Shown: positions 1 through 52,412 of the stretch, piece after piece
How positions within the stretch are numbered: position 1 is the first letter of the stretch
Layout of the letters: each line of letters begins with the position of its first letter
Assembly (NCBI GenBank): GCA_951406725.2
Contig: OX597817.1
Coordinates: 105,958,001-106,022,000, forward strand
Length of the DNA: 64,000 nucleotides
Reading direction: 5' to 3'
Source: Octopus vulgaris
Taxonomy: Eukaryota
Made by a program: the position numbers and the translations under genes
Notes under the pieces: model-generated
What the model saw: the letters and a program-made list of their open reading frames with translations, nothing else
What the model was told of the DNA's origin: nothing
Databases searched by the model: none

Positions 1-2559
1 AGATGTAACACAGATGATAATGTAACAGTTTTTTTACAAACATCAGTAACAAAATAAACATGAACAGTAATGTGAAACATAGTTCACATAGTAACACCAG
101 TGACAACAGATGTAACAAATGTTAACATGAGAAACAATTGCAATAATGACATTTGTAACAAAGTGTCATGAGGAACAGTTTTAATTTTTGGAATGGTTTA
201 GTCAAAATAAAGCAGATGCTTCTTGGATGTTTGTTGGTATGGTTGATGTTTGTGAACATTTTCAAGTCCATGCAAAGCAGGAACAATATGAGGACAGACA
301 GAATTGAAGAGGGTCCTCATTCTATAAGATAAAGATAAGGAGGAAATTGTCAGTGCAGGGCTGGAAGAGTGGGGAGGGAAGTATATGTCAAGGGTTGCCA
401 AAGGGGGTCCGAGCGACTTCCTAGGGTTCGGCGAGGAATTACAGGGGTCGATGATAGCCAAGAGGTCGAATGGAGGTCGGCGTGTGAAAGACCAGCTCAC
501 CCAGATGAACTGCTTCAAATACTTAGTCAGTGCAATGCTCATCCCTCACATTGATGTTGTCAATTTCAATAAAAGATATTCCAGCAATATAATGTATTTT
601 TCACATTTCCTAACCATGAAAACAATTTCATAAAAATTGAAATTTTAATAATGTACACGAAGTTTTAAATGTAAAAAGTGTGTCATCTTCAATAGAATTT
701 CTAGATTTGTCGTACATGTATATTTTAGCTAACATTTTAATTGCCAGCCTCAGTATCCAGTATGCATTTAAGATATGGTATGGAAGGGTAGGGTATTAAA
801 ATATTTTAAATGAGGAGGGTGGTCAATGCGGAAGGACAAATGGCTAAAGAGGGCCAATGGTCGAAAAAATTTGGCGACCTCTAGTTATAGGTGATAAAAG
901 ACAATTGTATTGAGTGGGCCTGAGTAAAGACAGTCTGAAATTAGCTAGCTCCAACGAGCTAAGGCTATTGCAATAATGGTAGAAACACTTCAGGTACAAA
1001 GACAAGCAACCAAGGGCATGGAAAAGTAAAGCAGTATCTGTAGATTTTCCATACTTATTTTGTAAAGTATGTGATGGCTGGAAGTTTAAGAGAATCATGA
1101 AATATATAATTTCATTTGAAATTGTATTTTTTCTCAAGGATTTGATTTATCTGATGATGTCAAATTATACAGGTTGTACTGAAGGTGTAATTTTTGGAGA
1201 GAACATCATCAAATATTATATTCTTTGTTATACACTTGCCACCGGTTCTACTTTGAGTGTTGTTATCTATTATTTTTATTTTTATATGTATAAAGAACTG
1301 AAAAACTTCAACTATGGAATGAAGTCAAAGATATAATCTATCCATAATTTTATTTTGTTATGGCTCAACAACATTAGTAAAGTTTTATCAAATCTAAATT
1401 ATTTTACTAATGATAAAAAGCATCATCGTCATCATCATATAATGTCAATGTTCTATAACGGCATGGTTGGATGATTTGATAGAATCCAAAGAGTCTAAGG
1501 ACTGCATCATGCTCCATTGTCTTCTTTGGTATGGTTTCTGTGACTGGGTACTCTTCCCAATGCCAATTTTACAGGAAATATAAATTTTGTGCATAAAAAA
1601 GATCATCTTAGTTTAATTTCATGGTTAAATTTTCATGTACAGAAACTGTAGCTGAATAACATCATAGATTAGAATCAATAAAAGTAATGATATATAACTT
1701 ATTGATTAATTGGACAATATCTCATACATCATCATCATGTGTTTCCAGAAGGTTAAATAAGTACACTGGATAGGCTTCCCCATGATCTATTTTCTAGTTT
1801 TTGGAACTTATCTCTACTAGTTAACATTACATTCATCATACCTCTATGAGGTAGAAATAGTAGTCAAATCTCACTTTATCACATACCTCATTATTTTTTA
1901 TCCACTATTTTTTATCCATCTATTTTCTTTGTAATGTAGATCCAGATACACTAGCTCTTATAAACAAAACCGGAATGTCACAGCTAAAATGCTTGTCATT
2001 AAACAAGGGGGTGTTGAAAGATTCCTGGCTTTGGGTAAAAAAAAATACAGGAGGATCAGTTCATTATGATTTTATGCAACATATTCTCCTCTCAGATTCA
2101 CACACTTATTGCAGTGGTCCTTCAGTTTTTCTAAGGCCTGTGAAAGAACTTGGAAGATTGGGCTTCCAACCAGGCCTTTCACCATATCCCTAAAACCAGG
2201 AACTTTTCAGCACCCCTTCATATAGCATCTATTTTCTTTGTAATGTAGTTCTAGATACAATAGGCCCAATAAACAAAAGATGGGTATCACAGCTAAAATG
2301 CTTGTAATCATATGTCTATTTAATCAGGACTAAGATGAAACAATACTGCTTAAAGCAGTGGTACAGGAGTGACTTCTATTGGTTCAGAGTGCTTCTTAAT
2401 AACCATATTGTCTGGACAGTTAAATGCCATGTGGTGTTACTGCTCCATGGATACACAACCCACTGCTTCTTTAGCAATTAGGCTATAATTCCAATGACAC
2501 AACTGTAATACCAATAAGACACAATATGGGTAATAGCATGAATATTATAAGAAGCAATC

Positions 2560-3010
2560 TAGGAAATATCATAAACTATAGTATAAGACAATGTAAGTAG
2601 TCAATAACAGAAAATGTAACTAAAGCTGTAATGCAACATGTAATAAAGGCTGTAACATGAATAAACAGAAACAGTAATATAACATGCAATACATACAATA
2701 GTACAGCTAAACAAAAAAAGCTGTAAAATGATACAATAATACATGTAGTAGAAGTTGTAATGCAACATATGATAAACGTATCATGAATAAACAGGAATAG
2801 AAACAACATGTAAGAGAAGCTGTAAAATGATACAGTAACACATGTAGTAAAAGCAATAGCACACGTATTGAAGCTGTAATATAACTAAGCAGACATAGTA
2901 ACACAACATGAAATAGAAATTGTGACACAACATAAAAAGGAGGCAATGGTAACACAGGTATAAAGCTGTAATACAAAAAAACATACCAAGTAACATGAAT
3001 ATTAAAACCA
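2560..3010. repeat. Degenerate tandem repeat (aagctgtaa..aacatg units, roughly 115-130 bp higher-order period)
   Basis: aagctgtaaaatgataca-x-taa-x-acatgtagta occurs near 2717 and 2817. Similar gtaaca/acatg-rich sequence lies at 1-180. Confidence 0.6.
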
Positions 3011-3585
3011 CAACCTTTAGAATAAAAAGCCATGGACATTCCACTTTTATAAATTTTCACATTCATATTTTCATGCATAAATTTATAGATCTCCAAAGCA
3101 CTATTTCATTATGTTAAGGATTACAATTATGTCTTCAGTTTCATTCCATAGTTAAGACTGTCTGAAGCATAATACACCGCCACACGAACATCATGGAAAG
3201 CAGAATAATATTGTAGATAATAAAACACAAGCAGTAACATATGTAACATGAACAGCAATACAACCATAATTCAGCTACTATTCAAGTAGTTAAATAACTA
3301 GTAAAAACAGTAATTCTTTTCAATGTGGGACCTAGGAAGAGGAGGAGTTTTCTCTTCTTAGGCCCCACATGAGGTGATGAGGCTCAATATTCTATCCAGT
3401 TCAACACAGTCATTTGGTTCTGGGATACCTTTACTGGTGCCTAACTTGTTGCAAGCATTCAGCTCAGCCCCACAGTTTGTACCCTACCCATGTTTTTCTT
3501 GTGGGCATTGACTTGCAGATATTCAAGCTAGGCATCAGCCATATCAATCTTATAAGTCTGGAAAGGTCTGCAAAGGTCATGATGC

Positions 3586-3990
3586 TTATCTATTATATAA
3601 AATCTGTTGTCTGTCTGTGTGTGTGTCTTCTAGGATCTTGGGCATTCTCCATCCGATTGCGCTCAAATTTGATATGTAGATACCAACGGTATCAGGGTGT
3701 GTATAAGTCTTGAAAAAAATTACAAAAATCGATTCCAGGTGAGAATGCGATCGATAAAACCGTAGGAACGTGCATTTGTAAAATCATTTTTCTTGGAATA
3801 GAAAAAAAAGTCTATCTTTATTTCTTCTTTTGCTGGTGTCTCAAATTTAGGTTAAATCAGTGTTTCTCAAAGGGGAGGCCTATGGGACAGTCGGACAAGT
3901 TGTTTTGAGAAAATTTGGTTTAAATGTTTGACAACTCAGCACCATCCATTGGACGGAAGGCATTTTACTCGTTTAACATAAACACATAAA
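3586..3990 (+). mobile_element. Probable non-autonomous Helitron-like fragment
   Basis: Starts tatctattatataaaa followed by ctgtctgtgtgtg and a ccgattgcgctcaaatttg motif, a layout typical of invertebrate non-autonomous Helitrons. 3' end not identified. Confidence 0.35.
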
Positions 3991-4451
3991 AGGTATTACC
4001 ATCAGTTTTGACAATAAGTATTCAGCTGTTCAATGAACAGGGCTACCTGTTTGTTAAATTAACATGTAAGACATCAGTGTGTCTTAATGTAATTCTCAGG
4101 TAGAGCCTGCATGATACCTGTGACAAGGTTGAACTTGTAGATTACAGGTGTAATCCTTGTGATGGATTTGCACACAATTTCTGATTCTCCAATTTCACTC
4201 ACAATGCTTGAGTTGACTTGAGGCTATGATAAAAGACACTTGTCCAAGATGCCATGCAGTGGGAACAAACCCAGGGCCTTGTAAATGCATAGCAAATATT
4301 TTAAGCATTCAGCCATAGTTAATACATGCAATAATAGTTATAAAAATGATTGGCCAAAGAAAGAGTAATGTAGACATTGTGACAAATAATAACACAAAAA
4401 GTATCAGATAAAGTAGCAAAGGAAGGAAATGCAGAAAATGACTAAAACAAT

Positions 4452-4665
4452 AAATAATCCTTTCTTCTGTAGGCACAAAGCCTGAAATTTGGGGGCAGGG
4501 GATTAGTCGATTACATCAACCCCAGTGTTTAACTGTTACTTTATCAATCCCAAAAAGATGAAAGGTAAAGTCAACCTTGGTGGAATTTGAACTCAGAATG
4601 TAGCAATGGGTGAAACACCGATAAGCATTTCACCCAGTGTGCTAATGGCTCTGCCAGTTTGCAAG
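4452..4665 (-). mobile_element. SINE family A copy
   Basis: Reverse complement of the recurring core ctggcaga..ttagca..ttctgagttcaaattcc..gtcgactttgcctttcatcc..gataaaataagtaccag seen more than 12 times in this window. Confidence 0.75.
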
Positions 4666-5411
4666 CAGTAATGGAAGAACAGTATTAAACCAGCATAACT
4701 TAATTTATTACATTTGGATATTTGGCTTCAAATAACTGAATACAATCCAAAATATTGCAAAACTTTGCTACACAACTTCCCTTTTAATGATACCCCATTT
4801 TAATAATATTTTTTAAAAATCATAAAAACAAAAATTTAATTATTAATTATGCAAAATGAATACTAAACATTCATAATGATTATTTTAAATGTTTAATACC
4901 CACACACACTTTGATAATGTGCATTTAAGTGTTTGTTCATTCATTCACTCATTCAGTTAGTTTGTATATTGATGTGGTGCATGCATACTGTATTCACCTT
5001 CTCTCCATTTCTCTTTCATCTTGAAACATATCAATCAATTCGTCCTTCCAATCAGACTGGTTAATTTTGGAAATTTCTAGCTGAATCTGGTGTATTTCAA
5101 CACAACATAGGTAATGAAAATAGTCACCTTGGGAATAGCTGTAAAGCTACTTAATTTTAAAAATACTGTAGCATATTCTAGCTAGTTTCTCATTATTGGT
5201 TGTTTTATAATTTTGATGAGCTGAACCAATCACACAGCAAGGCAAAATGACTGGCAAATTTAAGGAATAACCTCATTTAACAATTTGCTTCTCTTCTAGC
5301 AGCTAGATATTTGGAAACAACTGAAATGCTAAGTTGAGGTATTCTTGTAATAGCAGATGTTTCTAAATAACATTTCTATACAACACTTGCCTCAAATAAT
5401 GTTTAAAAACT

Positions 5412-5632
5412 TTAACCCTTTACATAACAATCCATCTAAAACTGCCCCTGGTCCTACAATACAAACCATTTTCTTTAAAATGATTTAAAACCTTCCATCA
5501 AAATTTCATGCAAATTTATGCTCCAGCTTAATAACAACAAAGTTATCTGACAAAATTCTTCTTTATTTTCAAAATTAATCGAAAGAAAGGCAGTATATTT
5601 CATGAAAAATATAGTATTGAAGTGGAGTTAAA
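5412..5632. mobile_element. Degenerate copy of the TTAA MITE family
   Basis: Starts ttaaccctttac, with internal similarity to 10028-10248 (aaccttccatcaaaatt, aagttat, aattaatcgaaag). Right end decayed. Confidence 0.5.
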
Positions 5633-6279
5633 CATAATCAGATCACGTATTAGAATTGTGTACATGTAATGCCCATGCCAGCATCAAGCCAATAAAAGAA
5701 ACTCTATGTGATTTAGCTGCCACTTCTAGCAGCTAAATCTAGATGGTCTTGCAAAGAATGCCTTTGATCATAGGCCTACTTTGTCAAGGCTGACCTGGGA
5801 TTAAACAACCACAACAACAGCATGCTAGCAAAGAAAATCAAATGCACGATGATAAAAACAATGATGAAGATGGTGATGATGATGAGGATGGTGATGATGA
5901 TCATGATAATAATCATGACAATGACTACAACTAAGAATCTGAATTGTTAGGAAAATATTATTGATGAAGACAAAATATTACATTGTTAGCTGAGATGAGT
6001 AATGGACTATTTCAAATGACATTGAATGAAAAAAGTTATCTTCACTGAAAGATTAATCTATTAATAAAAACAACTATTATCAATAAATCCAAGAAATATC
6101 TTGATTTATTCCTTTAAAACCACTGACAAAAGGAAACAGATAAAGGAAATTTCAGTTTGATCAAATAACTTAATTTGAACTATGATAAAACAGGTGTAAA
6201 AGCTTAAAAAAAAAGCTATAGCTAACACACTCACAAGCAAGAAAGACTGAGTAACAAATGCCATGCTTTTGCAAAATGT

Positions 6280-6365
6280 TTACGTGTTCACATAGCTGCA
6301 TGCAGACAGGGTCACTCTCTGAGCCCTCCTGCCCTGGACCCAGTAGAACATCCAGTGTTTGATAG
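6280..6365 (-). CDS. Candidate last coding exon of the PTN/MK-like gene (TIKHWMFYWVQGRRAQRVTLSACSYVNT*)
   Basis: Strong pyrimidine tract and acceptor (ctctctgtctttctctccAG) about 320 nt after the exon-5 donor, phase-compatible, ending in TAA at 6280-6282. The peptide has no family similarity, so the call is uncertain. Confidence 0.35.
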
Positions 6366-6685
6366 CTGGAGAGAAAGACAGAGAGAGAGGAGGCTACACC
6401 AGCATTGTGCTGGTACTTCTTTTCAATTAATCCTTGTAAAGATGAAAGACAAGAGTACCTTGGCAGGATTTGAACTCAGGAGTGCAGAGAGTTAGAACAA
6501 ATATCACAATACATTCCATCCAACCCTCTAATAACTGCCAGTCAACCACCTAATAGAAACAGGTGTAGGGTTTAGTAATTTACAAAAACTATAGCAATGC
6601 AAGGAAACTCAGGCATCAACAATAACAAGTGCTGATAAATTCAAGAAAAAAATTTTTTAAAAAAAGTTAAATCATATTAACTCAC

Positions 6686-6820
6686 TTCGGCGACAGGACT
6701 TGCTTATTGTCTTTTCCTTTTCACAGCTATTTGGATCCCCTCGACGTAAAGTTAGAACACGGACCTTTTTATTAGTGACAGGGTCACAGGCAGACCACTC
6801 ACCCTTCTCATATTTACACT
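6686..6820 (-). CDS. PTN-like: Pleiotrophin/midkine-family gene, coding exon 5: PTN/MK C-type domain 3 (KCKYEKGEWSACDPVTNKKVRVLTLRRGDPNSCEKEKTISKSCRR)
   Basis: Missing from the ORF track. ttttAG acceptor and GTGAGT donor; 135 nt, phase 1-1. Clear paralogue of exon 4 with identical length and Cys spacing. Confidence 0.9.
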
Positions 6821-8431
6821 CTAAAATCAGTAAGGATAATTAATTTCAACTGGAATAGGAATATTACAGAAATTTAATGTTCTGCTATAAGTTTTCAAAT
6901 GCATACAAGTTAGATTAGAAAAAATATATATAATGGAACACCTCGTATAACAATGCACAATATCACTTTTTAGTTATATGCATTGGCTAATTATAGTCAG
7001 TGATCTGAGAAATTCTAAGATTATATCTGCTTTTGTTTCAACACAATATCAGAGAAATATTTAAGGAAATAATACTTTTATAGTATATTGAAGGTAATAA
7101 TACTTTTATAGTATGCTGTATATTGTTTATATCGCTTCTAAAAAATATAAATATAGAGATTTTTATTTCAAGTTTTAGTTTTTACAGATTACTTCATCAA
7201 AATGATTTATTTGTAAAAATATCAGCAGCAAGCTCGATTCATAGATTAATTTCTATTATAACTGACAAAAAAATTTTTAGTAATTTTTTTTTCCCCCCAC
7301 TAGCTGTGAAGTCAAGATTCATTATAAAGCTGTCAGAAAACAAATTGCTTATATTTTTAGAGTAAACTTTAAGCTAATGAATAAAACAATTTTTTTACTT
7401 CATGAATAATAATTTGGTATGTACAAATTGTATGACTTAGCAGAAACACAAATAACACATCTCCTTATCATTATTCCATCACTGAAATGATAATTTCTTT
7501 TAACTATACTTACTAGAGCTTTATTTTATTTTATTTTATTTATTTATTTATTTATTCATTACCTTAGACTGAACACAGAACAATCTAGAACAGAGAACCA
7601 AAGGAAATACTATAAAGCATTTATAGAGCTATTCTTTAACTACTAAACTCTTGCTCCAAATATTCTCCTTTACATCCTCATGAAAATAGAAATAAGGATA
7701 GTTTTTTTTTAGTGTATAATGTATTAATGTTGCCTATTTTGTATGTTGGAACTGGGTAAATATCATGTTATATATTGTATACATGTTTAGTTAGAAGCAA
7801 CATCTACTGAAGATTATCCAAAAAAATTATATAGAATACTATCCCTTATATGATGAATAGGAAGAGGATGAGATGCAGGAAGATAAAGATGGTGATGATG
7901 ATGTTGACAATGACGATGATGATGATGATGATGATGTGTAACCCTCATTTTCAGAAACTGCCAACATATATCTGACATAACTGATAAAAAGTAACTGGAG
8001 AAGGTAAGGCAAAAAGGGGTAAGTTGGAATGAATTAGTTTTGTAAAATGTTTAAAAGTATATGTTTTGCATGGTCATATACTCTATTTTATTAAATATGA
8101 ACAATTTTTTTGGCATTATTATTATATTAATGTATAAAACTATCATGGTTGGAGGGAGCGGTTGCTAATATTCAGTTACAAAGTTGGACACTTTTAGTAA
8201 GTATAACAGAAATAAATTAATAATAACTAATATCATATAAATTAAGAATAGTAATGTAAATTACACTTGTAGAAAATTTGACTGCTTTCATATTATATCA
8301 GTGTATATATATGCATATACATACATATACATACATGCACATATACACACACATATATATATATATATATATCCATGCATGCATGTGGCATATATGTATG
8401 TATATGCTCAAACATGTACATGATTCGGATG

Positions 8432-8474
<43 letters not shown>

Positions 8475-8842
8475 GTATGAAATTATATGTAAATATATAT
8501 TTGGTCTAGAAGAGGCAGTACCAATGACTTTTGCAGGCCTTTCAAGGCCATTGAGCTTGACAAACTAGATGTTTTATATATAGTGAGACAAATCTAAATT
8601 CATTACTGAACACATCACTACGTTACCTAAGTCTTTTTAGTTGAACAGTCTTGAGATACTCTAAATAGAAGGCATGCTAAAACAATCAGGTATTTCTAAC
8701 TGGTTCTCAGTTTACTCCTTATCAAGGACAGAAAATATTTTAGAAGTCTAAATTGTAGATTAAATAATATTTTACATTATAAGTACCAGTTTGAGATAGA
8801 AAAGAGAAACAGATCCATTGGTAAGATTGTTTTACACACACA

Positions 8843-8843
<1 letters not shown>

Positions 8844-8897
<54 letters not shown>
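8844..8897. repeat. (CT)n microsatellite
   Basis: Pure CT run. Confidence 0.95.
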
Positions 8898-8901
<4 letters not shown>

Positions 8902-9108
8902 AGGTCCTTAGACATTCCAGCTCTTAATGCTGAAAAATTCTGGCAGATAATTCATTTATAAAATATAGATAAGTTTATTTAGTTGACAAGCAATTAAACA
9001 AATGATTTAAACATATTCAGTGGGTTAATTTTGATTTAATCTGTTAATCTGTTCATCTCTCTACAAACTGACTCTGTAAAACAAAGGTTTGAAATGTTGC
9101 TAACTTAC

Positions 9109-9243
9109 TTAATTTGCATGTTTTTGTTAATGTCTTCTCCTTTTGACATCTGTTTGGGTCTCCACGCCTTAGTTTTAACACCCTTGTTTTTTCATTTGTC
9201 TGGGCATCACATTGGGACCAAGGGCCTCGGGTATATTTACATG
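9109..9243 (-). CDS. PTN-like: Pleiotrophin/midkine-family gene, coding exon 4: PTN/MK C-type domain 2 (ACKYTRGPWSQCDAQTNEKTRVLKLRRGDPNRCQKEKTLTKTCKL)
   Basis: ttgtAG acceptor and GTAAGT donor; 135 nt, phase 1-1. Same 4-Cys CKY/W/CD pattern. Confidence 0.9.
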
Positions 9244-10027
9244 CTACAAACAAATTCTAAACATTATGGCCATATAAATAAAATATAAAGCATTCATTTA
9301 GAACTCCTCAAGCTTAAAAGCTGTAAATTATGCAAGCGATTCTGTATAACCGAATATAATATGAGTCGCCACAAACACACATACACATGTGAAATGTATA
9401 GAAAACCCTATTGGTGTTGGATATTCAATAGATAAAGTCAATGCCTTGTCAGTTTTAAAACACAAACCTTCTTTGTCATACACGTAATTATATTTTCTTA
9501 TTAACAAATTTTTATAATAAATGATCCACATTTAGGGGTTTTGTTTGTTTTTTATTTTACATCTTTTCAAAAGTGGTACTTTACATATTATAAAGTATAA
9601 TATATTATAAATACAGCTCCAAAATAAAATTCATGTATATTCTGACTTCATTACATACAAACTAACAGTAAAAGCTAAACAAAGATTTGAAAAAAAGAAT
9701 AAACTCTAAATTTGTGAGAAAGGGAAAAGAAACCAAACCCCCCAAAAAAAAGAACAATTATACTAAACCAAGAAAGGAGTAATTGTGGTGGGTAAAAACC
9801 TAAACAGATTAAAATTTCACTGTTAATCTAGAAATGTATGAAATAAATCAATACTCTATGTTTATATTATCTTCCAAATAGACATCACCAGCTCTTAGTA
9901 CTGTACAGATTTCTTATATCTTATTTATTCCTTTTATCTAAACATAGCATACACTCAGTAAAATTATAATTCCCTCTGCCACACTCAGACATCATATAGA
10001 ACAAAGTTATTTACAACATTCACTTAA

Positions 10028-10248
10028 CCCTTTCGTTACCAACCCGGCTGAAACCAGCTCTGGCTCTGAGTACAAATGTTTTGTTTTCATAAGTTTGGAA
10101 TTAAAAATCTTCAACCAAACCTTAGTCACAATTTATGTTCCTAACACAATCTGAATGATAACTAAGTTATTTTACTAAATTCTTTGTTATATTTAAAGTA
10201 ATTGAAAGAAACACAGAACATCTCAACAGAAATACAGTAACAAAAGGG
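10028..10248. mobile_element. piggyBac-like MITE (221 bp)
   Basis: TIRs ccctttcgttac / gtaacaaaaggg with a perfect TTAA target site on both sides. Confidence 0.8.
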
Positions 10249-11423
10249 TTAAACATTTGGAATTGTGTTTCACCACAAACTGAATGGTAAGATTTCTCAG
10301 AAATAAACATCCCCTTTACATTAAAATTGTAGCCAATGAGAGGATGAAGATTCAGTTTCAAACATATATCATTAACCATCATCAGATAGTGCAACAATAA
10401 GTTCTCTATAAAGGTTAAATGAAATGATATATTTTGTAATACTGATTTGTCTTTTTTTTTTTATATTTTTATTGTCTTTTCAAATCCTTCATACGTTTAC
10501 AATTACAATTTTTCTTTTACAAATTACTTGTTCACAGACTTTTATTGAATCAATATCAGTATCATTAATGTCCTTTTTTGCTATCAATCTCCAAAGGGAG
10601 AAAACGTGATGTGCTTCAACACTCAGTGACCTTTGTGCAAGGAGTCAACTTGAAGGCCATGAGCCAGCAGCTTCTCCTGACAAACATTCAGCCACATAAA
10701 CATTAACAACACAACTACACCCATTAAATATTTTGATCAATTCAAAAAGATTACAGTATATCAGTTTAGTTTTGACTGTATGAATTCCAAAACCACTAGA
10801 AAATATGCTTCCTTACAATAGTTTTGCTTATCATCCGGATATATCTCCAGGATATGATATCCTCTACATTAGTTTATAAACATAGCATACACTTGGTAAA
10901 GTTATAATTTTTCAGATTCTTGACCTCATCTTTAGAGCTGAAACATTTCTTAATACTTACATCTTAAGCTACTTTATAAATAGTTTGATTTCTGATTGTC
11001 ATCAGGTTTCTTACTCCTGGGTATATGCATACTACAGGAGTAGATGCATCAGTGGCCAAGCAGATAAAACCATTACTACCCATGCTTTAAAAATCAAGGT
11101 TTGTTTGTACATTAATACAATATACATATCCAGGAATAAGGCACTGATGATGATTAGAGATTAAAACAATTAAAACCTGGTGTAGATGAAAATATGTAAA
11201 ATAAGATTTCATCTTTACAGATGATGTTGACAGTCTAAAAAATGACAATCTTATTAACAATAGCATTTGATAGCATATACTAACATTTTATAATATAAGG
11301 TTTTTTTCTATAAAATGAGACTCCTAATTCAATTATTATATGACTCAATACATTCTGTATTAATATCTATGAGAATTACAAATTTTTTGGATGGAATCTA
11401 ATACTTGTAAGAGTTAATCTAAT

Positions 11424-11640
11424 AATCCTTTCTAATATAGACACAAGGCCTGGAATTTGGGGTGAGGGAGCAAGTCAATTAGACTGAACCCAGTATGCAA
11501 CTGGTACTTAATTTATTGACCCTGAAAGGATGAAAGGCAAAGTCAATGTCAGTGGAATTTGAACTCAGAACAGAGCAACAGACAAAATACTGCTAAGCGT
11601 TTTTCCCAGCGTGCTAATGATTCTGCCAGCGTGCCACCTT
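11424..11640 (-). mobile_element. SINE family A copy
   Basis: Same core (ctggtacttaatttattgaccctgaaaggatgaaaggcaaagtc on +). Confidence 0.8.
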
Positions 11641-11961
11641 AAGAGTTTGCCATATAATAATCTGATACTTGTACTAATCACAAGATCAATCATATTTACT
11701 CTCACAACTAGAGACTGAACCAAATAAACTTGATTTGATTCTTTGTTAATTAGGATAAATACTGAAGTATTTTTAGAATGAAATATTTGGTGTAACATAG
11801 TCTAGGAGACACTTATTTATATGTGATAACTTGTCCATTGGCTTAAAAAAGTATCAACATTGCAAGACAGGCCAATTGTTCCACAACTGCCCTTGCATGC
11901 TTCCATAACTTAACATCATTAACATTTATGTATTCATATACACATGTACATACCACAAAGT

Positions 11962-12350
11962 GGAGGCGCAATGGCCCAGTGGTTGGGGCAGCGGACTCGC
12001 AGTCGTAGGATCGCAGTTTCGATTCCCAGACCGGGCGTTGTGAGTGTTTATTGAGCGAAAACACCTAAAAAGCTCCACGAGGCTCCGGCAGGGATGGTGG
12101 TGATCCCTGCTGTACTCTTTCACCACAACTTTCTCTCACTCTTACTTCCTGTTTCTGTTGTACCTGTATTTCAAAAGGGCCGGCCTTGTCACTCTCTGTG
12201 TCACGCTGAATATCCCCGAGAACTACGTTAAGGGTGCACATGTCTGTGGAGTGCTCAACCACTTACACGTTAATTTCATGAGCAGGCTGTTCCGTTGATC
12301 GGATCAACCAGAACCCTCGTCGTCGTAACCGACGGAGTGCTTCCATCCAC
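11962..12350 (+). mobile_element. tRNA-derived SINE family C
   Basis: tRNA-like head with A-box (tggcccagtgg) and B-box-like gtttcgattccc. A related copy lies at 34656-34945. Confidence 0.75.
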
Positions 12351-12720
12351 ATACCACAAAATAAAAACACAAAAATAACATGCAAATAACACGCACACAG
12401 AAGAAGATAAAAATCCTTTGAGTCATCAACTATATAGAAGACAGGACATATTAAGAGACATCATCTAAACAATGATAGTATTGAGTTTCTGGAGTCTTCA
12501 AGCATTAATGATCTTTCTTAATTACTGTAGATATGAATGTTTAGAATAGAACCAATTCTTCTTTTTAATTAATTGCTGGGTATTTTGATAGATGATGTTC
12601 AAAATTTACCAATGCTAACATATTTGTGTCGAGGCTGATAGAAGTGAGGTAGAAAGATTTCTGAATATCATAGGTGTTCTGTCACCCTTGTTCTTAGTTT
12701 TCTAATGATCACCTGCTTAA

Positions 12721-13792
12721 CCCTTTCGTTACCAAACCGCCCAAACCCGTCCGAATTTACCTATTCATATTTAAATGAGAATATCAGAGCAAATCTCTTT
12801 AGTACATTCGTGAAAACACGTGATTATGCTTCGTAAACAGTTCATCTACAGTTTTGTACAAAGATCGACGTGTAATTTGAATTCCCTGAATTTCGGGAGA
12901 TTTTTTTCCACATTTTTTTCGGCATCGATTTTTCTTCAACTTTGAAAATAGATAGGAGTTTCATGTTATCAAGCATTGATTCCGAATTGGAAAATTTGTG
13001 AAACAAATACTGGTTACTGTTGTGGATTTAGTTTTTATACATGGAAACTAATGTTAGTCAGCATGGCTTAGGGTATGATGTGGTCTGGAAGTTATTGTTT
13101 GAAGCGATCAATGCGGAAACAAACTTACGCAGAACGTAAACAAACACAAAATGGGGGTTCAGATTTCGGAAAATTTGTGAAGCAAATACTGGGTACTGCG
13201 TGAATTTAGTTTTTATACAGGGTAAATAATGTTAGTCAGCATGGCCTAGGGAACGATGTGGTCTGGAACTTATCACTTCCATACCATAACCAGGGCCGTA
13301 TATTATTTTTTGACCGATTTCTTTAGTTCGGTCAAACTTACGGTGGATTCCAATATTTCAGTTTAATCCACCTTTATGGTACACCTGTTGTGCATTAAAT
13401 TCAACTGATGATATAGAGATGTGCACAATTCTTCTTTATCAAAATTTTGTTGCATACCCATTTGAATACTAGTTGATGATTCATTTTCTATGGTGATGTT
13501 TAAAAAAATTTTAATATTTTTACCTTTTGCTCATTTTAAAATTTTAATATTTTTACCTTTTGCTCAATTTACCTGGATTTACCTGTAATTAAAGTCACTT
13601 TGAGACAAAAGTTTTGCAATAGAATCGATTAAGAACCCTTTCTTTAATTATGTTCCAAATATCACATTAATATGTTGATAAGTAAAAAAGTTACAGTTAT
13701 TTAATGAAACAAGCCTAGATTCATGATTATTTTAGAATTTAATTGAAACTCATGAGGGGTGTATTTTGGTCAGAAATATAGTAACGAAAGGG
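12721..13792. mobile_element. Non-autonomous piggyBac-like element (about 1.07 kb), same TIR family as 10028-10248
   Basis: TTAA|ccctttcgttac ... gtaacgaaaggg|tt, a perfect 12-bp TIR. Internal direct repeats about 180 bp apart (about 12985-13100 and 13165-13275). No transposase ORF. Confidence 0.75.
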
Positions 13793-13858
13793 TTGTGGTT
13801 GTCGTTGATAAGTGATACATACTCACATGTTACACACACACACACACTCAGAGACATA

Positions 13859-13902
<44 letters not shown>

Positions 13903-13992
13903 TAAATATATATATTGCGAAATTTGATTTAATGCTAAATTGAATTTTTCCCTGTAAGTTTGGAATTATACTCCCTAATATTATTATTATGC

Positions 13993-14028
<36 letters not shown>

Positions 14029-14715
14029 GTACATATATACATACACACACACACGCAACACATTTATATATATATACATATATATTTGTACATACACATC
14101 ACACTCATGCACACACACACTCACACACACATGCATGCAGGAGGAAGAAATGAGAAAACAGATGCAAATGGAGAAACATTTGCCAATGCTGTTATACAGT
14201 GGGAATACAACAGAGCAAAACTACTTTATTGATGATGCAAAGCAAAGTTTCTTGGGTTCTGACCAAATACTTTTGTAATTAAGTCACCATTTTTCTCACT
14301 ATATTTAAAGAAGAGGATGGTAATCTTTCATATATTTAAGTTTAATTCAATTAATCCCATGTTAGAAAAGTTCGTTTATTGAAAGTTACAAAATTTTTAT
14401 GAGTAAAGGATTTAAGAATGACTGCTGTTGTTGTCTTAGTAGATATATAAGTCCATTTGCAGTTACAATAATAGAGTACAACAAATGTACACAGCCATCA
14501 TCTACAATGTACAATTACAAATACATCTATGCAGACAAAATTATAATAAAAAGAAGCAATATATAACCACAGTTGCAATATACAACAAGTGTATGCAACT
14601 AAAGTGAAGTTATTGCATGCAGCAGCAGTTATGGAATTTTCTGTTATCACATTTTTTTTTAATTAATTTTTTTGCTGTAGATTTTACAGACTAGGCAGGG
14701 AATTTAAAAACTTAC

Positions 14716-14856
14716 CCTTTCCTTGTTTACAACCCTTAGATTTTATTCTAGTTTCAGGGCATTTCTTTGGATCGCCTTTCTTCAACATCATTGTCATATT
14801 TTTGGTGCTGGTGTTGGGATCACAAGCAGACCAAGTCCCTTTCATATACTTACATT
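14716..14856 (-). CDS. PTN-like: Pleiotrophin/midkine-family gene, coding exon 3: PTN/MK C-type domain 1 (ECKYMKGTWSACDPNTSTKNMTMMLKKGDPKKCPETRIKSKGCKQGK)
   Basis: ttacAG acceptor and GTAAGT donor; 141 nt, phase 1-1. Carries the CKY-x4-W-x2-CD...L-K-K...C...K-x-C signature of the PTN/MK C-domain. Confidence 0.9.
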
Positions 14857-14982: not shown

Positions 14983-15210
14983 TTTCTACTCTAGGCACAA
15001 GGCGTGAAATATTGGTGGTGGTGATGGGGGAGGGGGCAGTCAATTAGATCGACCCCCCCCTCCAGTATGCAATTGGTACTTAATTTATCAACCCCGAAAG
15101 GATGAAAGGCAAAGTCGACCTTGGCAGAATTTGAACTCAGAATGTAAAGACACAAAATACTGCTAAGCATTTCGCCTGGCATGCTAACGTTTCTGCCAGC
15201 TAGCCACCTT
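14983..15210 (-). mobile_element. SINE family A copy
   Basis: Well-preserved core ccccgaaaggatgaaaggcaaagtcgacc..atttgaactcagaa. Confidence 0.8.
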
Positions 15211-16745
15211 GTATTGTAACATTAAAACTACAAAGCACTAAGGGATGCTTTATGTAGATGCTTGACCTACTAAAAGCAGTAGTCAAATCTTCCTTAAATT
15301 ACACATCACTCTATTTGAAAAGGATACATTGCTTCTAATCATACCCTATTATCTTAAAAGTAGAAAAGATGCATTGGACAATGTAAATATACAAAATAAT
15401 AGGATGGTCATAGTAGGAGCACAGCTCAGTTAGGGCTGACTCGGTTTTAATAACAGGAAGCCTACTTACAAAATCAGACCAAAACAATAAGGTTAGCTTA
15501 CTTCAACATAGGGGTACATATGATTATGATAATATGTTTGCTCTTAATCAAAGAAAATTGAGTAAATTCTTATGTAATTCTGGAGGCCATTAGAATCAAT
15601 TATATCACATGATTACATCTTGTGACTATTTACTTTGTAGTTACAGAAGATAGCATCTATGTAACTGCTTGATCAGTTACAAATAGCAGCCAAACCACCC
15701 TCAAATAATAGGCTGTTGTCTTAAAGAAAGAGAGAAGGTGAGAGGGAATGAGAGAGATAGAATTTTAGTCCTGGCCAAACAAAATTAAGGAAGGGTCGAG
15801 ATTGGAACAGTTTTGATTATAGTTCTGTCTGCTCAATCAAAACCAACTTGGAACTAAGTAACTACTTAGTTTACCACTATAAAATGTCAGTAACAATATC
15901 AATATATATGACACCTTTTCCTTTAAAAACATAGAGTTGATTCTGTTTAATTACTTCTGTAATTGAAAATCTCATGCTATTAACAGAATTTGCAAGATAG
16001 GTGATAAATTACAAGATTCCAATATGCTGTCAGTAGTAAAGCATTGTGATATTTCACACATATACTAGATACAGATGAAAGCAAAAATAAAATTTTATAT
16101 ACAATACATTTTATGTAAACATAAATTACTTATCTTCCACCCAGTTCATGCTGTTTCTTTGATATATTATTGGTATGACAATTGTTTCACTTATCCCCTA
16201 TGAGGTTTTTGCAGTTGCTTTTGATATTTTTCAATTACCCATTCTTAACTTGACAAAGACTTTCACACAATTTGAATTACTCAATGATAACAACTTAGAG
16301 GATGCAGAAAAACTTACTGGGTCCATCACAGAATGAAATAGTTGATAATGAAAACAACAAGATAACATCCTTTGTCTAAAAAATATCGTTTGGTAATATT
16401 TATCTACAATGAAAACTTATCTATTGAAGAGTTTTATTACACTATTAGAAATAAGATAAAATTCAATTAAAAGAGTAATGTGAACACATTTAATTTTTTA
16501 ACATTGGTTACTTGTAAAACACAAGGCGCTGCCTTCTGTCATTCTTATTCATCATCAAAACAGAAGCTTCTAGAATCACCTAATTCATCCTAAGTCAAAT
16601 ATATGTTCAATTTTAGCATACATTGGGCTAAATGTTTACTCAAAATCTAAAACAAAAACAAAAACAAACGTGCATAATTAACTGAGATTGGCATCATTTA
16701 CTAATGTAAATGACGTTGATTAACTGAAAGTTAATTGTATATACA

Positions 16746-17130
16746 GGCGCAGGAGTGGCTGTGTGGTAAGTAGCTTGCTTACCAACCACATGGTTCCGAG
16801 TTCAGACCCACTGTGTGGCACCTTGGGCAAGTGTCTTCTACTATAGCCTCAGGCTGACCAAAGCCTTGGGAGTGGATTTGGTAGACGAAAACTGTAAAGA
16901 AGCCTGTCGTATATATGTATAAATGTATGTGTGTATATGTTTGTGTGTCTGTGTTTGTCATCCATCTTCCCCCCCGCCAACATCGCTTGACATCCGACGT
17001 TGGTGTGTTTACGTCTCCATAACTTAACAGTTTGGCAAAAGAGACCAATATGATAAGTACTAGGCTTAAGGCAGTGCTCCAGCATGGCCACAGTCAAATG
17101 ACTGAAACAAGTAAAAGATTAAAAGATAAA
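16746..17130 (+). mobile_element. tRNA-derived SINE family B
   Basis: Head ggcgcaggagtggctgtgtggtaag..ggttccgagttcagaccc..caccttgggcaagtgtcttctactatagcc. Related copies at 46720-47107 and 61127-61293. Confidence 0.8.
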
Positions 17131-21900: not shown

Positions 21901-24900
21901 AAATTTCCCTAATATTTTCGTTTAATAAGAGCTTGGCACTTAGAGGACCACTTCTGCAGAAGATATGCTGTTTTGAACTGCATGTCTTGGTACCTATATT
22001 TTAAGATTTTGGTCAGTTATTGCAAATGTTTTAAATTTATTTACATATATTAAAAAATGTAATATGCCACATATATTTCATATATTCAATAGCACACTGA
22101 CAGAGTATTGCTATGAATGATTGCTTGACCAATTTCTTGCCACAGACATGAAATAGCAGCCACTTTACCTTCACTTCAACTAGCTTTTCCTTAGAATAAA
22201 TGAAAGCCCTTGTCAATTTACCAGTGACAGCATTTGAATTTATTACCTCTGATTCAAAGAGATATGTGTCTAGTAGTACTGTATACATGCCAACATAGCC
22301 ATCATCATAGCACTTTGAAATGTTACTGTCAGTGAAAATGTTTGTAAAATTTACATCCTTACCCTCATACTCAAAGTATATGGTAAACAGGCCTTCTCAC
22401 CAAGTATTTTTCATCACTATAGTGCAGTTTGTTGGGCTCCAATGTCACTGATATGCCTGCAGACACTAGGAAATATTTGATGACATTGTTTTTTACAGTA
22501 TGTTGGAGAATCTGTTCCAGCACTGAGTCAGCATGAGAACGCATATCTCTGAGCAGTGAGGGAAATGTGTGGGAAATTGTAGAAAAAATGTAAACTAGCA
22601 TTTGTCAGTTTAAGGGGTTCTGTTGTTGTTGTTGTTGTTGTCGTCGTCGTCATTGTCATTATCGTTGGGTAAGAGTCTTCTACCTTAGACTTAGACTTAC
22701 CACAACCTTGTCTACAGAATTAATCCCAAACAAGTCATCCATTTCTCCCCATAACAAGCAGTGTACAATCTATAGATGGGGAGTATGTTGTTGACTGAAA
22801 CTAAGTGAAAGGCTGCCATGTGCATATACATGTATGTGTGTGTCTTTTACTGATTTACATTTCTGAAGGATATGAACATTGACGTGAAAATGAAGTTAGT
22901 GCTTTATGAATAGAGTTCCTTAAAATACTTGTTTTGTATCCATGTTACACACACTCCCTTGTCACTTGCTATCAGAAATGCACTGAACCAATCTAAAGCT
23001 ACTATTGTTCACCAACTGTGATACTACTTGAAATGATTGGGTATGTAAGTATTTTGTTAGGTATGCAGGTATTTGTAAATACCTCATGGAGTGACGACTG
23101 TGCTCTGGATAATTATGGGCTGCCCTTTGGCAAGGTATAGCATGCATTCAACCACCCTGCCAGGGATACAGCAAAGCCAAGGTGGATTGTGAAGAGGTAG
23201 CAGAAGAGCTCAACTGAACCAATGGTGCTTCTTACATTGATGCTGAGCAGAGGAATCCTAGAAGATCAATTGTCAGGATCATCAAGCTCTTTCAAAGGGA
23301 GTAACTGCAATGCATCAATAGGGGGGACATCCATGGATGTGTAATCAGTTGATTCAAATTCATAATAATGGAATTGGATGGAGACAGAGAGTCTTGGGAA
23401 TCCATGAAAATAATGATGAAAAAAAATATATGAAAATATATTTATTGTAGATGAAGCTTCAGAAATTGTTGGATTTTGGAATCAAAGCTCTGCTTCAGAC
23501 ATCCTATTTCTCCAGTCTTTCACCGAAAAGATTTTAATTTTTTCAAATACCTAGACAGTTGCTTGAATAGCACACATTTCCAAAACCAGACAGTGTCACA
23601 GAAGCTTTCAAAGAGTTTATAGATTCTATAAACACATTCATTTCTACATGACAGGAATCTATAGTCTTACTACATTTGTACTGAATTAAATGGAGCCTAC
23701 TTTGATTAAAGCATAGTTTTTCACCTTTGCTTTATATCTTTTCAAACATTGATCCTTCATCATCATCATCATCATAATCATCATCATGAATTCAAGACAA
23801 CAAAGCAATGAGACTGAAAACTTTTACAAAACTCTTCAAGATTATTATTTAAAAACAGCCATTATGCTCAGGAGCATTTTCAATATATCAACAATCCTAT
23901 GAGAATAACCAGATATAATTACATCATCATCCTCATCATTATCAGCACCACCACCACCAACTGCCTCCACCACTGCCACTGCCATCATCACCACCACCAT
24001 TATTATTCACCATAGAAATAGAACAAATTACTTTAAAACAACATTAGGAATTTAAACACAAGGATAAATAATCCAGAATTTTAAACAGTTTTGAAGCAAG
24101 GACAATATAAAAACTGACCTTCACAGTAACAGACAGCCAATAAATACTCCTGCACAGACCCAGTGATAAATAGGCCAGTCTATTGCAAGAGTTAATTTAT
24201 TGAGAATGAAATCATGGCAAATACAGTATTGTCCATAATTATCAAATTTAATAAGTTAGTGGTTATGAAATGTAGGCTACTATACTCTGACCTACTACCA
24301 CTAATAAATTTATCCGTTATCTCAAGTCTGAAATTATATAACCATTACCATTCATATGGTAATCATGAAATGTAATTTCTATGCCATTTGCATTTCACAT
24401 GTATTTCAATAGTTGTGTGATTTTATGACTGATAAAGCATTCAAGAGGATGATTTTCTATAGCAATTTCAAAATGTCTGAACTATATAAATTGGGTACAT
24501 TTAAGATTGTTTTCCTTCTATTTTCCAAATCATGAGTAACATTATCTCTTTTTCTTTTTCTTCTTTCTCTCCACTCCTCTTTTACTTGGATAGTATAAGT
24601 AATTATTCTGATTATCCCCCTGCTCTAATAGTCTTTACTGAATGTATACAACAGAGAAAAAGACTTGTCTGATTATGAAACTAGTTGGAAATATTAAACA
24701 TTGAATATACAAACAATATAACTTTTTGAGTTACATGTCTATGATAACTTTTCAGTGAAAAGGAAAAAAGTGAAAAAGACAGGATATAATTTTTACATAA
24801 TTTCCTCCCTCATAGGAAAAATAAATGAAACAATAAATAACCAGCTTTGTTTTACTAGTATAATGTCTTGGAAGATAAGCTGTCTCAGATTCTAAATCCT

Positions 24901-29033: not shown

Positions 29034-29234
29034 CTTTGCCTCCAGCTCGTTTTTTCTTGTCTTTGTTCATTTTATTATTCACCATATCATTGCTTTCACA
29101 AGGTATTGTGCAAGAGAATGTTTTCTCTTTTTTACCACAATTACTTCCTGTTCTCCGGCCAATTTTTTTACCAGATCCACAGACACCCCCATTTACTTTG
29201 CATTCATCAAAAACCCATTTGGAACAACTTTTTC
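29034..29234 (-). CDS. PTN-like: Pleiotrophin/midkine-family gene, coding exon 2: PTN/MK N-terminal domain plus basic linker (RKSCSKWVFDECKVNGGVCGSGKKIGRRTGSNCGKKEKTFSCTIPCESNDMVNNKMNKDKKKRAGGK)
   Basis: ttgtAG acceptor and GTAAGC donor; 201 nt, phase 1-1. The six-Cys pattern C-x2-W-x4-C-x6-C-G-x-G-x3-G-x-R-T-G-x2-C-x5-K-T-x2-C-x-I-P-C matches the pleiotrophin N-domain as I recall it (CGEWQWSVC...GDCGLGTREGTRTGAEC...KTQRCKIPC). Confidence 0.9.
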
Positions 29235-31556: not shown

Positions 31557-31659
31557 TTTTTAATGCAGCTGCTGGTTTGTCTGCTTGTTGGGCTTTAGCT
31601 ACATCTGTCACTCCAAAAGAGACAGACAGAACACATGTAATAATCCACAGCAGTTTCAT
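31557..31659 (-). CDS. PTN-like: Pleiotrophin/midkine-family gene, coding exon 1: signal peptide MKLLWIITCVLSVSFGVTDVAKAQQADKPAAALK(R)
   Basis: Missing from the ORF track and read by hand. Acceptor tttcAG lies 4 nt upstream of the ATG (31659). It has a hydrophobic signal-peptide core with A-K-A at a likely cleavage site and a GTAAGC donor. 103 nt, phase 1, joins exon 2 in frame (a+ga = Arg). Confidence 0.85.
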
Positions 31660-32527: not shown

Positions 32528-32841
32528 TATTAGATAATGGAGTCTAAGTTACTAAAATAGTCTAAAAAAATAATAATAAACAGAAGGATCATAGTTGGAA
32601 TGCTTTGGATTAAGTCTGCTCAGTCAGGGATAATCTAGAGCTAAACAATAGCAACAAGTATGATAAAAATATCCTTAAGTAATTGTGGTTCCACTGATGA
32701 CTAGCATCTTCATGAAGTGAATTTAGAAGAGTTTAGCCTAGAATAAAGTATTTGTTCTTCTTGAATCTCTCACAATATGAAGATGTTAAGGTAAATATTT
32801 CAAACTAAAGAATCATTTGTTAATTGTACAATTAATTCTTT

Positions 32842-33060
32842 AAGATGGTGAGCTGGCAGAATCATTAGCATGCTGGGGAAAATGCTTAGTGGCGTATTGT
32901 CCGTCTTTACTTTCTAAGTTCAAATCCCTTCGAGATTGACTTTGCCTTTCATCATTTGAGGGTCAATAAAAAAAATACCAGTTGAACACAGGGGTCAATC
33001 TAGTTAACTTATCCTCGCCACCTCAAATCGCTGGCCTTGTGCCAAAACTTGAAAGCAATT
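32842..33060 (+). mobile_element. SINE family A copy
   Basis: ggtgagctggcagaatcattagca..tttgcctttcatc..ctggccttgtgccaaaa. Confidence 0.8.
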
Positions 33061-50490: not shown

Positions 50491-51289
50491 AAAGAGCTTC
50501 GGGTTGTAGCAGAGACGACATGGCTAACAAGCAGCGGCTGAATCTGGCTATCATCATGACGAACAACTGACAGCAACACAGCTAATTTCAACAAAACGGA
50601 CTTTCTATAACACATTGACTAACTATAATTTTTCTAATACTATTTCTATAACACCAAACTCCCTCAACAGTTATCGTAATACTAATAACACCAAACTCTC
50701 TCAACTTTTATCGTAATTCTATTAAATAATATTAAAACTCTCAACATTTATTGTGATTTTTCAATTACACCAGTTAATATAACATCCAAACTCCCACAAG
50801 AAATAAAGTTGTTCATAAAACCTCAACAGATTTCGTCATTTTCTTTTGCGTACAACTATTGACCGCCGACACTAGAAATAACAGCAACCAACAGTTAACA
50901 GTCAGCTCCCAACATACAGCTCCTAGCACTTAGCTGATCAGCTCAACTACCATGGCAACCTTCATGCACGAGTCATAGTGTAAACTGAACATAACATTTG
51001 GAACTTATAAAAATTCTCATGGTTTTTGTGATATTATATAACCTTAGTAAAAATGTATTGTTGAATTTTTTTCTACTTAAAGCTAATTCTGCGAGTTAAA
51101 TGGTTTTCTTGAGAATATTTCAGTAAAAATACCATTCTTTTTAACAATATTACAACAGTTACGTTTGATGTCACATCAGTCATGACCGTCAAATACGGTT
51201 TTCAGCTTTCCTATAGAAATGTTTCCTAATGTATGCCAAGTACATATTTTTATACAAACAACTTGTGACAAAAACATACCGGAAATTTA

Positions 51290-52213: not shown

Positions 52214-52412
52214 AAGGCGGCGAGCTGGCAGAATCTTTAGCATTTCGTCCGTCTTTATGTTCTGAGTGCAAATTCAGAATGTAAAGAGGTCGACTTTGCC
52301 TTTCAATCTTTCGGGATCGATAAAATAAGTACCAGCTGAACTTTGGAGTTAATGTAATTGGCTTCCCACTCGCCCGAAATTACTGGCCTTGTGCCAAAAT
52401 TTAAAACCAATA
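52214..52412 (+). mobile_element. SINE family A copy; duplicate at 57216-57414
   Basis: ggcggcgagctggcagaatc..gtcgactttgcctttc..ctggccttgtgccaaaattt. Confidence 0.8.

Follow-up and report, generated by a model that had tools for sequence, protein, structure and literature searches.

The vertebrate growth factors pleiotrophin and midkine (PF05196 plus PF01091; PDB 2n6f, 8voi, 2lut and 1mkc) carry a leader, one N-domain, one C-domain and basic tails. Their C-domain contains four Cys and a Trp and adopts a three-stranded TSR-like fold, and pleiotrophin residues K91 and R92 belong to cluster 2 of its glycosaminoglycan-binding sites (PMC8773689). Drosophila Miple1 and Miple2 and the arthropod PTN_MK_C proteins belong to the same family. 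According to the available part of the source, both Miples are secreted heparin-binding proteins whose receptor is unsettled, and that part of the text on Miple contains neither RGD nor KGD (0 occurrences) (PMC4224452). In a literature search thin on subscription journals and restricted to main texts, no report of RGD or KGD in invertebrate pleiotrophin relatives was found, and PMC7851593 contains the term only among its references.

The window analyzed here (a 64,000-nt stretch of Octopus vulgaris contig OX597817.1, positions 105,958,001–106,022,000) holds exons of a gene on the minus strand that encode a pleiotrophin/midkine-family protein, identical to the annotated Octopus protein P0001 at 238 of 238 residues. 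Among Atlas clusters, the nearest to the Octopus protein is a PF01091 cluster rich in arthropods (score 0.91). The first coding exon (31557..31659, minus strand) begins with an ATG at 31659, encodes P0001 residues 1–34 and ends at a GT phase-1 donor; its hydrophobic N-terminus, modeled as a helix over residues 3–16, is likely a signal peptide. A 201-nt exon (29034..29234, minus strand; phase 1-1, AG/GT ends) encodes the PTN/MK N-terminal domain and a basic linker. The match of this exon to PF05196 is marginal (22.1 bits, cut-off 20.4), and a search with full-length P0001 at E 0.01 does not list PTN_MK_N; P0001 aligns with pleiotrophin 3–110. Three further minus-strand exons, all phase 1-1, each encode a PTN/MK C-domain: C1 (14716..14856, 141 nt, 41.8 bits), C2 (9109..9243, 135 nt, 46.6 bits) and C3 (6686..6820, 135 nt, 49.2 bits), all above the curated cut-off of 25.3 bits for PF01091 (PTN_MK_C). 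An intron with its GT donor at 6685 then leaves the window (1..6685, minus strand), and the exons for C4, C5 and a terminal domain lie beyond it. Neither tblastn nor a six-frame profile scan found a further C-domain or last exon within the window: the scan gave three matches at E <1e-18 and the next at E 1.4, and C4, C5 and the terminal-domain exon had no tblastn match there.

P0001 shares with pleiotrophin and midkine a likely leader, the single N-domain and the C-domain pattern of four Cys and a Trp. However, the vertebrate proteins have one C-domain, whereas the Octopus gene has at least five plus a terminal domain. The vertebrate architecture of one N-domain and one C-domain was not found in the Octopus protein, whose annotated isoforms each contain three to four C-domains and the terminal domain. 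Exon C2 is missing from isoforms P0003, P0004 and P0005, and exon C3 from P0004 and P0005. The symmetric phase-1 exons would permit isoforms differing in domain number, as the annotated isoforms suggest, and this variable domain array is more interesting than the K/RGD triplets discussed below. Tandem C-domains followed by a terminal domain also occur in Gigantopelta aegis (P0006), Mya arenaria (P0009), Haliotis rubra (P0155), Priapulus caudatus (P0022) and Glandiceps talaboti (P0156), which have 4–11 C-domains and, like P0001, loops of the xGD type with K, R or S preceding GD. All five are annotated at source as 'uncharacterized protein', and a search of titles and the opening parts of abstracts found no description of invertebrate arrays of up to 11 C-domains.

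A first-pass annotation of this DNA had drawn attention to an integrin-type triplet in each C-domain. C1 contains KGD within LKKGDPKKC (P0001 residues 128–130; 14771..14779, minus strand; AAA GGC GAT), C2 contains RGD within LRRGDPNRC (175–177; 9158..9166, minus strand; CGT GGA GAC) and C3 contains RGD within LRRGDPNSC (220–222; 6735..6743, minus strand; CGA GGG GAT). The codons and the reading of all three were confirmed, each interval covering the tripeptide alone, and the triplets do share one position, occupying alignment columns 26–28 of three homologous exons. That they occur in all three C-domains holds for the window but not for the gene: the annotated isoforms include C4 (LKAPSD), C5 (LDSGDR) and a terminal domain (YGDSE), none with K/RGD, and the impression of a complete set arises because the window edge truncates the domain array. 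Within Octopus, the loop thus varies with the domain (KGDP, RGDP, APSD or SGDR), and at least one annotated isoform is without any RGD.

The same annotation took the differing codons of the two RGDs as a sign that the peptide had been kept. The codons do differ, but so do those of the rest of the exon. C2 and C3 encode the same residue at 28 of 44 codons, 17 of those 28 with a different codon, and 16 codons are replaced. Since synonymous divergence runs throughout the exon, the RGD codons behave like its other codons, and codon divergence was rejected as proof of selection on RGD. Moreover, the three triplets sit in duplicated exons and therefore are not independent events.

The reading that we hold to be probable is that the triplets are exon-duplicated copies of the standard invertebrate C-domain loop. 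The K/R residue is likely part of a heparin-binding patch and G-D-P is likely a structural turn, so that RGD is probably incidental and not an integrin signal under selection. R25 and R26 align with pleiotrophin K91 and R92. Both basic clusters of pleiotrophin, K68/K91/R92 and K84/R86/K107 in its numbering, are common to the two proteins; by alignment, the cluster positions are basic at 5/6 in C1, 6/6 in C2 and 6/6 in C3. P0001 as a whole has 79 K+R against 29 D+E. An AlphaFold model of the C-domain (mean pLDDT 91.3) places a strand at 17–26, a loop at 27–34 and a strand at 35–41, and the full-length model gives the same layout in all three C-domains. The C-domains are accordingly predicted to adopt a three-stranded TSR-like fold with four Cys. 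The best fold match is the pleiotrophin C-domain (Z 5.4, rmsd 1.8 A, 43 aligned), and the top four Foldseek rows are midkine/pleiotrophin at E 0.02–0.14; no Foldseek match reached E 0.001, as is expected because the domain has only 44 residues. In the model, R26 is the last strand residue, G-D are the first two residues of an eight-residue loop (block pLDDT 89–96), and the loop lies outside the sheet, with the motif away from the sheet middle, pinned by a disulfide and predicted to be ordered. The topology would place the loop at the pole of the N-terminal Cys.

The molecule is predicted to be a secreted string of small, disulfide-bonded, three-stranded TSR-like domains, each bearing a basic face that corresponds in the alignment to pleiotrophin clusters 1 and 2. 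By analogy with the family, an array of this kind would attach to heparan or chondroitin sulfate chains, its avidity set by domain number, and the symmetric phase-1 exons would allow that number to differ between isoforms. Position 26, at the end of strand 2, would need only a basic or small residue; Gly-27 would leave the strand, and Asp-28 likely caps the turn ahead of Pro-29 and the Cys-32 disulfide. KGD and RGD differ by one K/R exchange at position 26.

A family survey of the loop covered 413 domains in 160 proteins, sampled from the best 150 of 298 hits. The query contained GDP, and xGD is therefore inflated in this sample, falling from 79/135 in the closest stratum to 3/28 in the farthest (best 150 of 298 hits). 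This bias was handled by strata only, a query with the terminal domain alone retrieving just four Octopus proteins. Judged by these sequences, L-[KR]-x-G-[DSN] is the consensus loop of the invertebrate family, and xGD is its commonest form. Among the best 150 of 298 hits, G27 is present in 301/413 domains and is followed by D in 153, S in 43, G in 32, N in 25, Q in 16 and E in 13; N, S, E, Q or G replaces D28 in 129 of the 301, and the residue preceding GD is K in 80, R in 32 and S in 24 of the 413 domains. The first-pass annotation had offered an inherited structural turn as its fallback, and this is the explanation favored by the evidence, with xGD found in gastropod, abalone, bivalve, priapulid and hemichordate relatives. 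The vertebrate loops that it gave, LKRALHN (pleiotrophin) and LKKARYN (midkine), proved correct; in full, KRALHNAEC and KKARYNAQC are one residue longer than the Octopus loop and lack GD.

An unlikely alternative is that the K/RGD loops are working integrin ligands and that the protein bridges proteoglycans, through its basic faces, and integrins of the PS2/RGD class. This alternative adds that KGD is an old invertebrate ligand motif, changed to RGD in Octopus C2 and C3. Like fibronectin FN10, Drosophila thrombospondin and the disintegrins, P0001 carries the tripeptide in a (predicted) extracellular disulfide-rich protein, and the models place the motif within the loop region. Drosophila thrombospondin, an integrin ligand, uses KGD according to the portion of PMC9140312 at hand; the accessible portion of PMC7390872 places an oyster alpha integrin among the RGD receptors and reports that it binds an RGD peptide. 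In human pleiotrophin, integrin alphaM is bound by the corresponding loop, via E98 (PMC10862807). Conversely, the FN10 RGD is carried by a flexible loop that projects from its domain (PMC9140312, same portion), whereas the Octopus R ends a strand, the loop is disulfide-pinned and predicted to be ordered, and Pro follows the motif. The portion of PMC9140312 also describes a conserved KGD in Lar phosphatases that is inaccessible and is no ligand. Pro follows Asp in 3/3 motifs, and RGDPF, which had lost adhesion, was the sole inactive peptide of its series in the available part of PMC9909794, a result limited to HeLa cells and fibroblasts, linear peptides and human integrins.

Residue statistics bear on the integrin alternative from both sides. 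No loop triplet is commoner than [KR]GD, and a basic residue at 26 tends to occur together with Asp-28 among the best 150 of 298 hits, with an odds ratio of 6.3 that is uncorrected for kinship (other basic sites, 0.7–2.5) and of 2.6–10.6 within three identity strata; a tree-based control of this coupling yielded just four independent pairs and had no power. In the same best 150 of 298 hits, D is kept after RG in 32/42 domains against 24/57 after SG; in proteins that have at least three domains, the odds ratio for K/R versus S with D is 1.7 (p=0.19). R is not enriched in [KR]GD (share 0.29 against 0.35 for all domain residues, p=0.19) and D is not preferred after RG over KG (32/42 against 80/114, p=0.55), both among the best 150 of 298 hits. 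Over 903 pairs, covariation ranks G27-D28 second, D28-position 31 fourth and 26-28 fourteenth, a pattern that parallels that of the other D-P-x-T turn at 12–15. Strand 1 contains another [KR]-G-x site, which reads RGD in 6 of 321 domains and KGD in 11 (best 150 of 298 hits). Among those hits, 63 proteins have at least three domains. P0001 is the one protein of the 63 whose [KR]GD loops include three in a row; 4/63 have at least three [KR]GD at any position, and 2/63 have at least two RGD (best 150 of 298 hits).

Nor is RGD conserved in related species, an outcome that the first-pass annotation had named as refuting its proposal. The closest relative of the same architecture among the best 150 of 298 hits, P0002 (1.3 kb contig; 58% identical, same domain order), has loops KGD/KGN/KGD, with KGN thus in one of the two domains that match C2 and C3 at the same place. 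P0020 and P0039 have KGD, and among the matching domains of close relatives RGD is retained only in C3 of O. bimaculoides, a point in favor of an integrin role. RGD occupies the loop in 0/11 domains of P0006, 2/8 of P0009, 1/7 of P0155, 1/5 of P0022 and 0/4 of P0156. A domain tree (37 columns outside the loop, 70 rows) was mostly unresolved, its sole starred join of Octopus with an outside protein being C1 with domain 1 of P0002; the orthology of C2 and C3 therefore rests on domain order and identity (24–26 of 36–37 residues). Isoforms P0004 and P0005 are given as RGD-less. The proposal of a multivalent integrin ligand is therefore not supported, given the lack of R enrichment, the alignment of the R with a glycosaminoglycan-binding residue of pleiotrophin, the Pro after each motif and the KGD/KGN/KGD relative. 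The bolder version, an outside chance, is that invertebrate pleiotrophin/miple proteins have in the [KR]GD loop an old and so far unrecognized site for integrin binding, which vertebrates have lost, and that exon skipping in Octopus would set the number of RGD copies (0, 1 or 2) per molecule to give a tunable proteoglycan–integrin bridge.

It is improbable, too, that the loop is a receptor-contact surface like the 90s loop of human pleiotrophin, engaging a non-integrin receptor or making a non-canonical acidic contact, with the triplet itself irrelevant. A93, H95 and E98 of the pleiotrophin loop touch the alphaM I-domain (PMC10862807), and the Octopus loop varies from one type of domain to another, as could be the case for a surface that confers specificity; but C1–C3 have K, R or S where pleiotrophin has E98, the oyster set lacks alphaI-domain integrins in the part of PMC7390872 available, and no Miple receptor is settled (PMC4224452, in part). 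That C2 and C3 are misannotated or rarely used exons, with RGD copies of little biological weight, is very hard to credit: both are missing from 2/4 annotated Octopus proteins found and the gene models are predictions, but both have canonical AG/GT ends, open frames and all four Cys, they differ at 17 synonymous against 16 replaced codons, and two domains of P0002 match them at the same location.

Most likely, this octopus gene is a pleiotrophin/midkine-family member that has been annotated but not studied. Under the exon-duplication reading, an RGD within a fold rich in K, R, G and D is poor ground for reading function. If the integrin reading were true, the miple proteins of invertebrates would gain a class of receptor that can be tested, and adhesive valency would be tied to the skipping of exons. 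The molluscan and other invertebrate arrays, which reach 11 repeats, offer a natural setting in which to test the effect of domain number on glycosaminoglycan avidity.

The KGD (14771–14779) and two RGD triplets (9158–9166 and 6735–6743) lie on the minus strand of a pleiotrophin/midkine (PTN/MK)-family gene, and the window sequence confirms their coordinates and codons as first reported; all six frames of the window hold 16 [RK]GD triplets, and these three are in open, Cys-patterned exons. The C-domain exons C1 (14856–14716), C2 (9243–9109) and C3 (6820–6686), all minus strand, each have AG/GT ends, a length that is a multiple of 3 and phase-1 junctions, and match Pfam PTN_MK_C at 41.8–49.2 bits (cut-off 25.3). 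Upstream of C1 on the same strand lies exon 2 (29234–29034), which matches PTN_MK_N at 22.1 bits (cut-off 20.4), and upstream of this the first coding exon (31659–31557). The joint translation of the five exons is identical at 238/238 positions to residues 1–238 of P0001, a database protein of 330 residues assigned by NCBI to Octopus vulgaris. An AG acceptor at 31664 precedes the first coding exon, and therefore at least one further exon lies upstream. The intron between exon 2 and C1 contains a 119-residue open frame of protein-like composition (22037–22396, minus strand), for which a Pfam search gave no match. Further upstream of the gene, a tandem duplication of ~5 kb (50676–60685; 99.7% identical) is either recent or an assembly artefact; its broken frames (53324–53803, 52551–52886 and their copies), which we take to resemble an LTR-retroelement pol region, had no Pfam match at E 0.01. 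Dispersed repeats of 150–200 nt in introns and flanks, 78–86% alike (11442–11642, 15062–15210 and 32840–33041; 16745–16920 and 61118–61295), are likely SINE-type elements.

The first-pass annotation read the different codons of the two RGDs as a peptide that was retained while synonymous sites diverged. C2 and C3 share 78/134 bases and encode the same residue in 28/44 codons, 17/28 of which differ synonymously; synonymous change thus runs through both exons without singling out RGD, the pattern of old duplicates under purifying selection over their full length. C1–C3 agree in 17 alignment columns, G27, D28 and P29 among them, but not at position 26. Nor did RGD prove conserved in these close relatives, although O. 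bimaculoides keeps that of C3. Against the KGD, RGD and RGD of Octopus, P0002, a database protein 58% identical and of the same domain order, has the loops LKKGDPS, LRKGNPN and LRKGDPN, and two further relatives (P0020 and P0039) have LRKGDPN; a single K/R exchange divides these loops from that of Octopus. Outside the loop, their domains agree with C2/C3 at 24–26 of 36–37 residues, a relation that the domain tree did not settle. All three proteins carry RGD elsewhere, at a strand-1 [KR]-G-x-W site (YTRGDW; P0002 152 and 197, P0020 108, P0039 49) that reads RGD in 6/321 and KGD in 11/321 domains, which suggests that this fold yields the triplet easily.

A search with a profile of C1–C3 gave 298 representatives at E ≤ 0.001; the 150 best of these, together with added database proteins, formed a family set of 164 proteins. 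In this set a second-round profile detected 429 domains, and in 423 of them the loop is complete. Once 10 domains belonging to three near-identical Octopus proteins were set aside, 413 domains from 160 proteins were compared. Their loop has the consensus LKKGDP. G27 occurs in 301/413 domains of this sample (mainly the best 150 of 298 matches), followed by D (153), S (43), G (32), N (25), Q (16), E (13) or P (10), and GD is preceded by K in 80, R in 32 and S in 24 of the 413. Redundancy-weighted shares are 0.31 for xGD, 0.13 for KGD, 0.07 for SGD and 0.06 for RGD. Across the 413 domains, R is not enriched in [KR]GD (0.29 of basic residues versus 0.35 domain-wide, p = 0.19), and D is in no excess after RG (32/42) over KG (80/114; p = 0.55). 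xGD falls from 79/135 domains in the identity stratum closest to the query to 3/28 in the farthest, while G27 stays at 113/135 and 19/28; the sampling favors domains close to the query, a bias that would overstate rather than understate RGD frequency. By these counts, the K/RGD motif is ordinary for the family. Among others, Gigantopelta, Haliotis, Mya, Priapulus and the hemichordate Glandiceps have xGD, so that the G-D turn is likely about as old as bilaterians.

A C2 model (51 sequences, mean pLDDT 91.3) predicts strands at 2–8, 17–26 and 35–41. The full-protein model (42 sequences, pLDDT 84.6, and a pTM of 0.37 so low that packing between domains is undefined) predicts the same strands in C1–C3, with K128, R175 and R220 as last strand residues, each followed by an 8-residue loop. 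The closest folds to the model are the pleiotrophin and midkine C-domains (Z 5.4, rmsd 1.8 Å, 43 residues). The first-pass annotation asked whether RGD is an exposed loop apex; the predicted motif lies outside the sheet, but at the start of a loop that includes Cys-32. By sequence alignment, R25/R26 correspond to pleiotrophin K91/R92; basic cluster 2 of pleiotrophin consists of these two residues and K68, and cluster 1 of K84, R86 and K107 (PMC8773689); the six cluster positions are kept 6/6 in C2, 6/6 in C3 and 5/6 in C1. Covariation over 903 column pairs, with weighting that took out shared ancestry only in part, ranks W8–R20 first, G27–D28 second, D12–P13 third, D28–position 31 fourth and D12–T15 sixth, with 26–28 at rank 14, a pattern that points to two similar D-P-x-S/T-like turns per domain. 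Asp caps turns in Asx-Pro type turns, and the two-turn pattern would fit such a role.

The gene encodes a multi-domain pleiotrophin relative that probably binds heparin and whose RGD probably arises incidentally, from a basic-cluster residue that stands beside a G-D-P turn. The fallback of the first-pass annotation, GDP as an inherited structural turn, is favored as part of this reading by G27/D28 covariation and by xGD in the named relatives. The protein would be secreted, Asp-28 would cap the turn, and the array would bind glycosaminoglycans with an avidity depending on domain number. Drosophila Miple1/2 are secreted, heparin-binding and dispensable for viability, and the main text of that paper does not mention RGD/KGD (PMC4224452); miple2 knock-down impairs wing-disc regeneration (PMC11597413).

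That the loop is a true integrin ligand is unlikely. A basic residue at 26 accompanies D28 at an odds ratio of 6.3 (298 G27 domains; 0.7–2.5 at nine other basic sites), and the association persists over three identity strata (2.6–10.6), but drops to 1.7 (p = 0.19) for K/R versus S in proteins with at least three domains; a tree control comprised 4 pairs only. This association could stem from shared ancestry of LKKGD, from query bias, from a charge pair within the loop or from a genuine ligand motif. Thrombospondins contain RGD/KGD (PMC3575656), and the Drosophila protein, an integrin ligand, has KGD (PMC9140312). A conserved KGD of Lar-type phosphatases is inaccessible by crystallography (PMC9140312), making conservation alone weak evidence. 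An oyster alpha integrin binds an RGD peptide, and oysters are without alphaI-domain integrins (PMC7390872). Human pleiotrophin binds the alphaM I-domain via E98 in the corresponding loop (PMC10862807), whereas Octopus C1–C3 have K, R or S at this position. Within an RGD-X1-X2 series of linear peptides on human integrins, RGDPF alone gave no adhesion, neither of HeLa cells nor of fibroblasts (PMC9909794). Some other receptor-contact role for the loop is more improbable still.

The motif had been placed in all three C-domains, which is correct for the window, but K/RGD occurs in 3 of at least 5 C-domains: the C4 loop is LKAPSDSSC and that of C5 LDSGDRSMC. No exons for C4, C5 or the terminal domain lie within the window, and the gene extends past its edge. 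Database predictions give the order C1-C2-C3-C4-terminal for P0001, C1-C3-C4-C5-terminal for P0003 (O. bimaculoides) and C1-C4-C5-terminal for P0004 (O. vulgaris) and P0005 (O. sinensis), so that annotated isoforms draw different C-domain subsets and carry 2, 1 or 0 copies of RGD, which is absent from the whole of P0004 and P0005. Comparison of the gene (31659–6686, minus strand) with these four proteins shows that the C-domain exons are all symmetric phase 1-1 cassettes, and the junction residue varies in the way expected of split codons, with K or E ahead of C3. Exon skipping may underlie these isoform differences and would vary the array. Among the matches listed, invertebrate pleiotrophin relatives have up to 11 tandem domains (P0006, P0007, P0009, P0155, P0022, P0156 and others), and 63/160 proteins have at least three in a sample built mainly from the best 150 of 298 matches. 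Several invertebrate relatives have in common a last domain, RCFFG.W...C, that PTN_MK_C does not match, and five Gigantopelta domains cluster with strong support in the domain tree, which points to lineage-specific expansion. It is this variable domain array, rather than a motif commonplace in the family, that is worth following.
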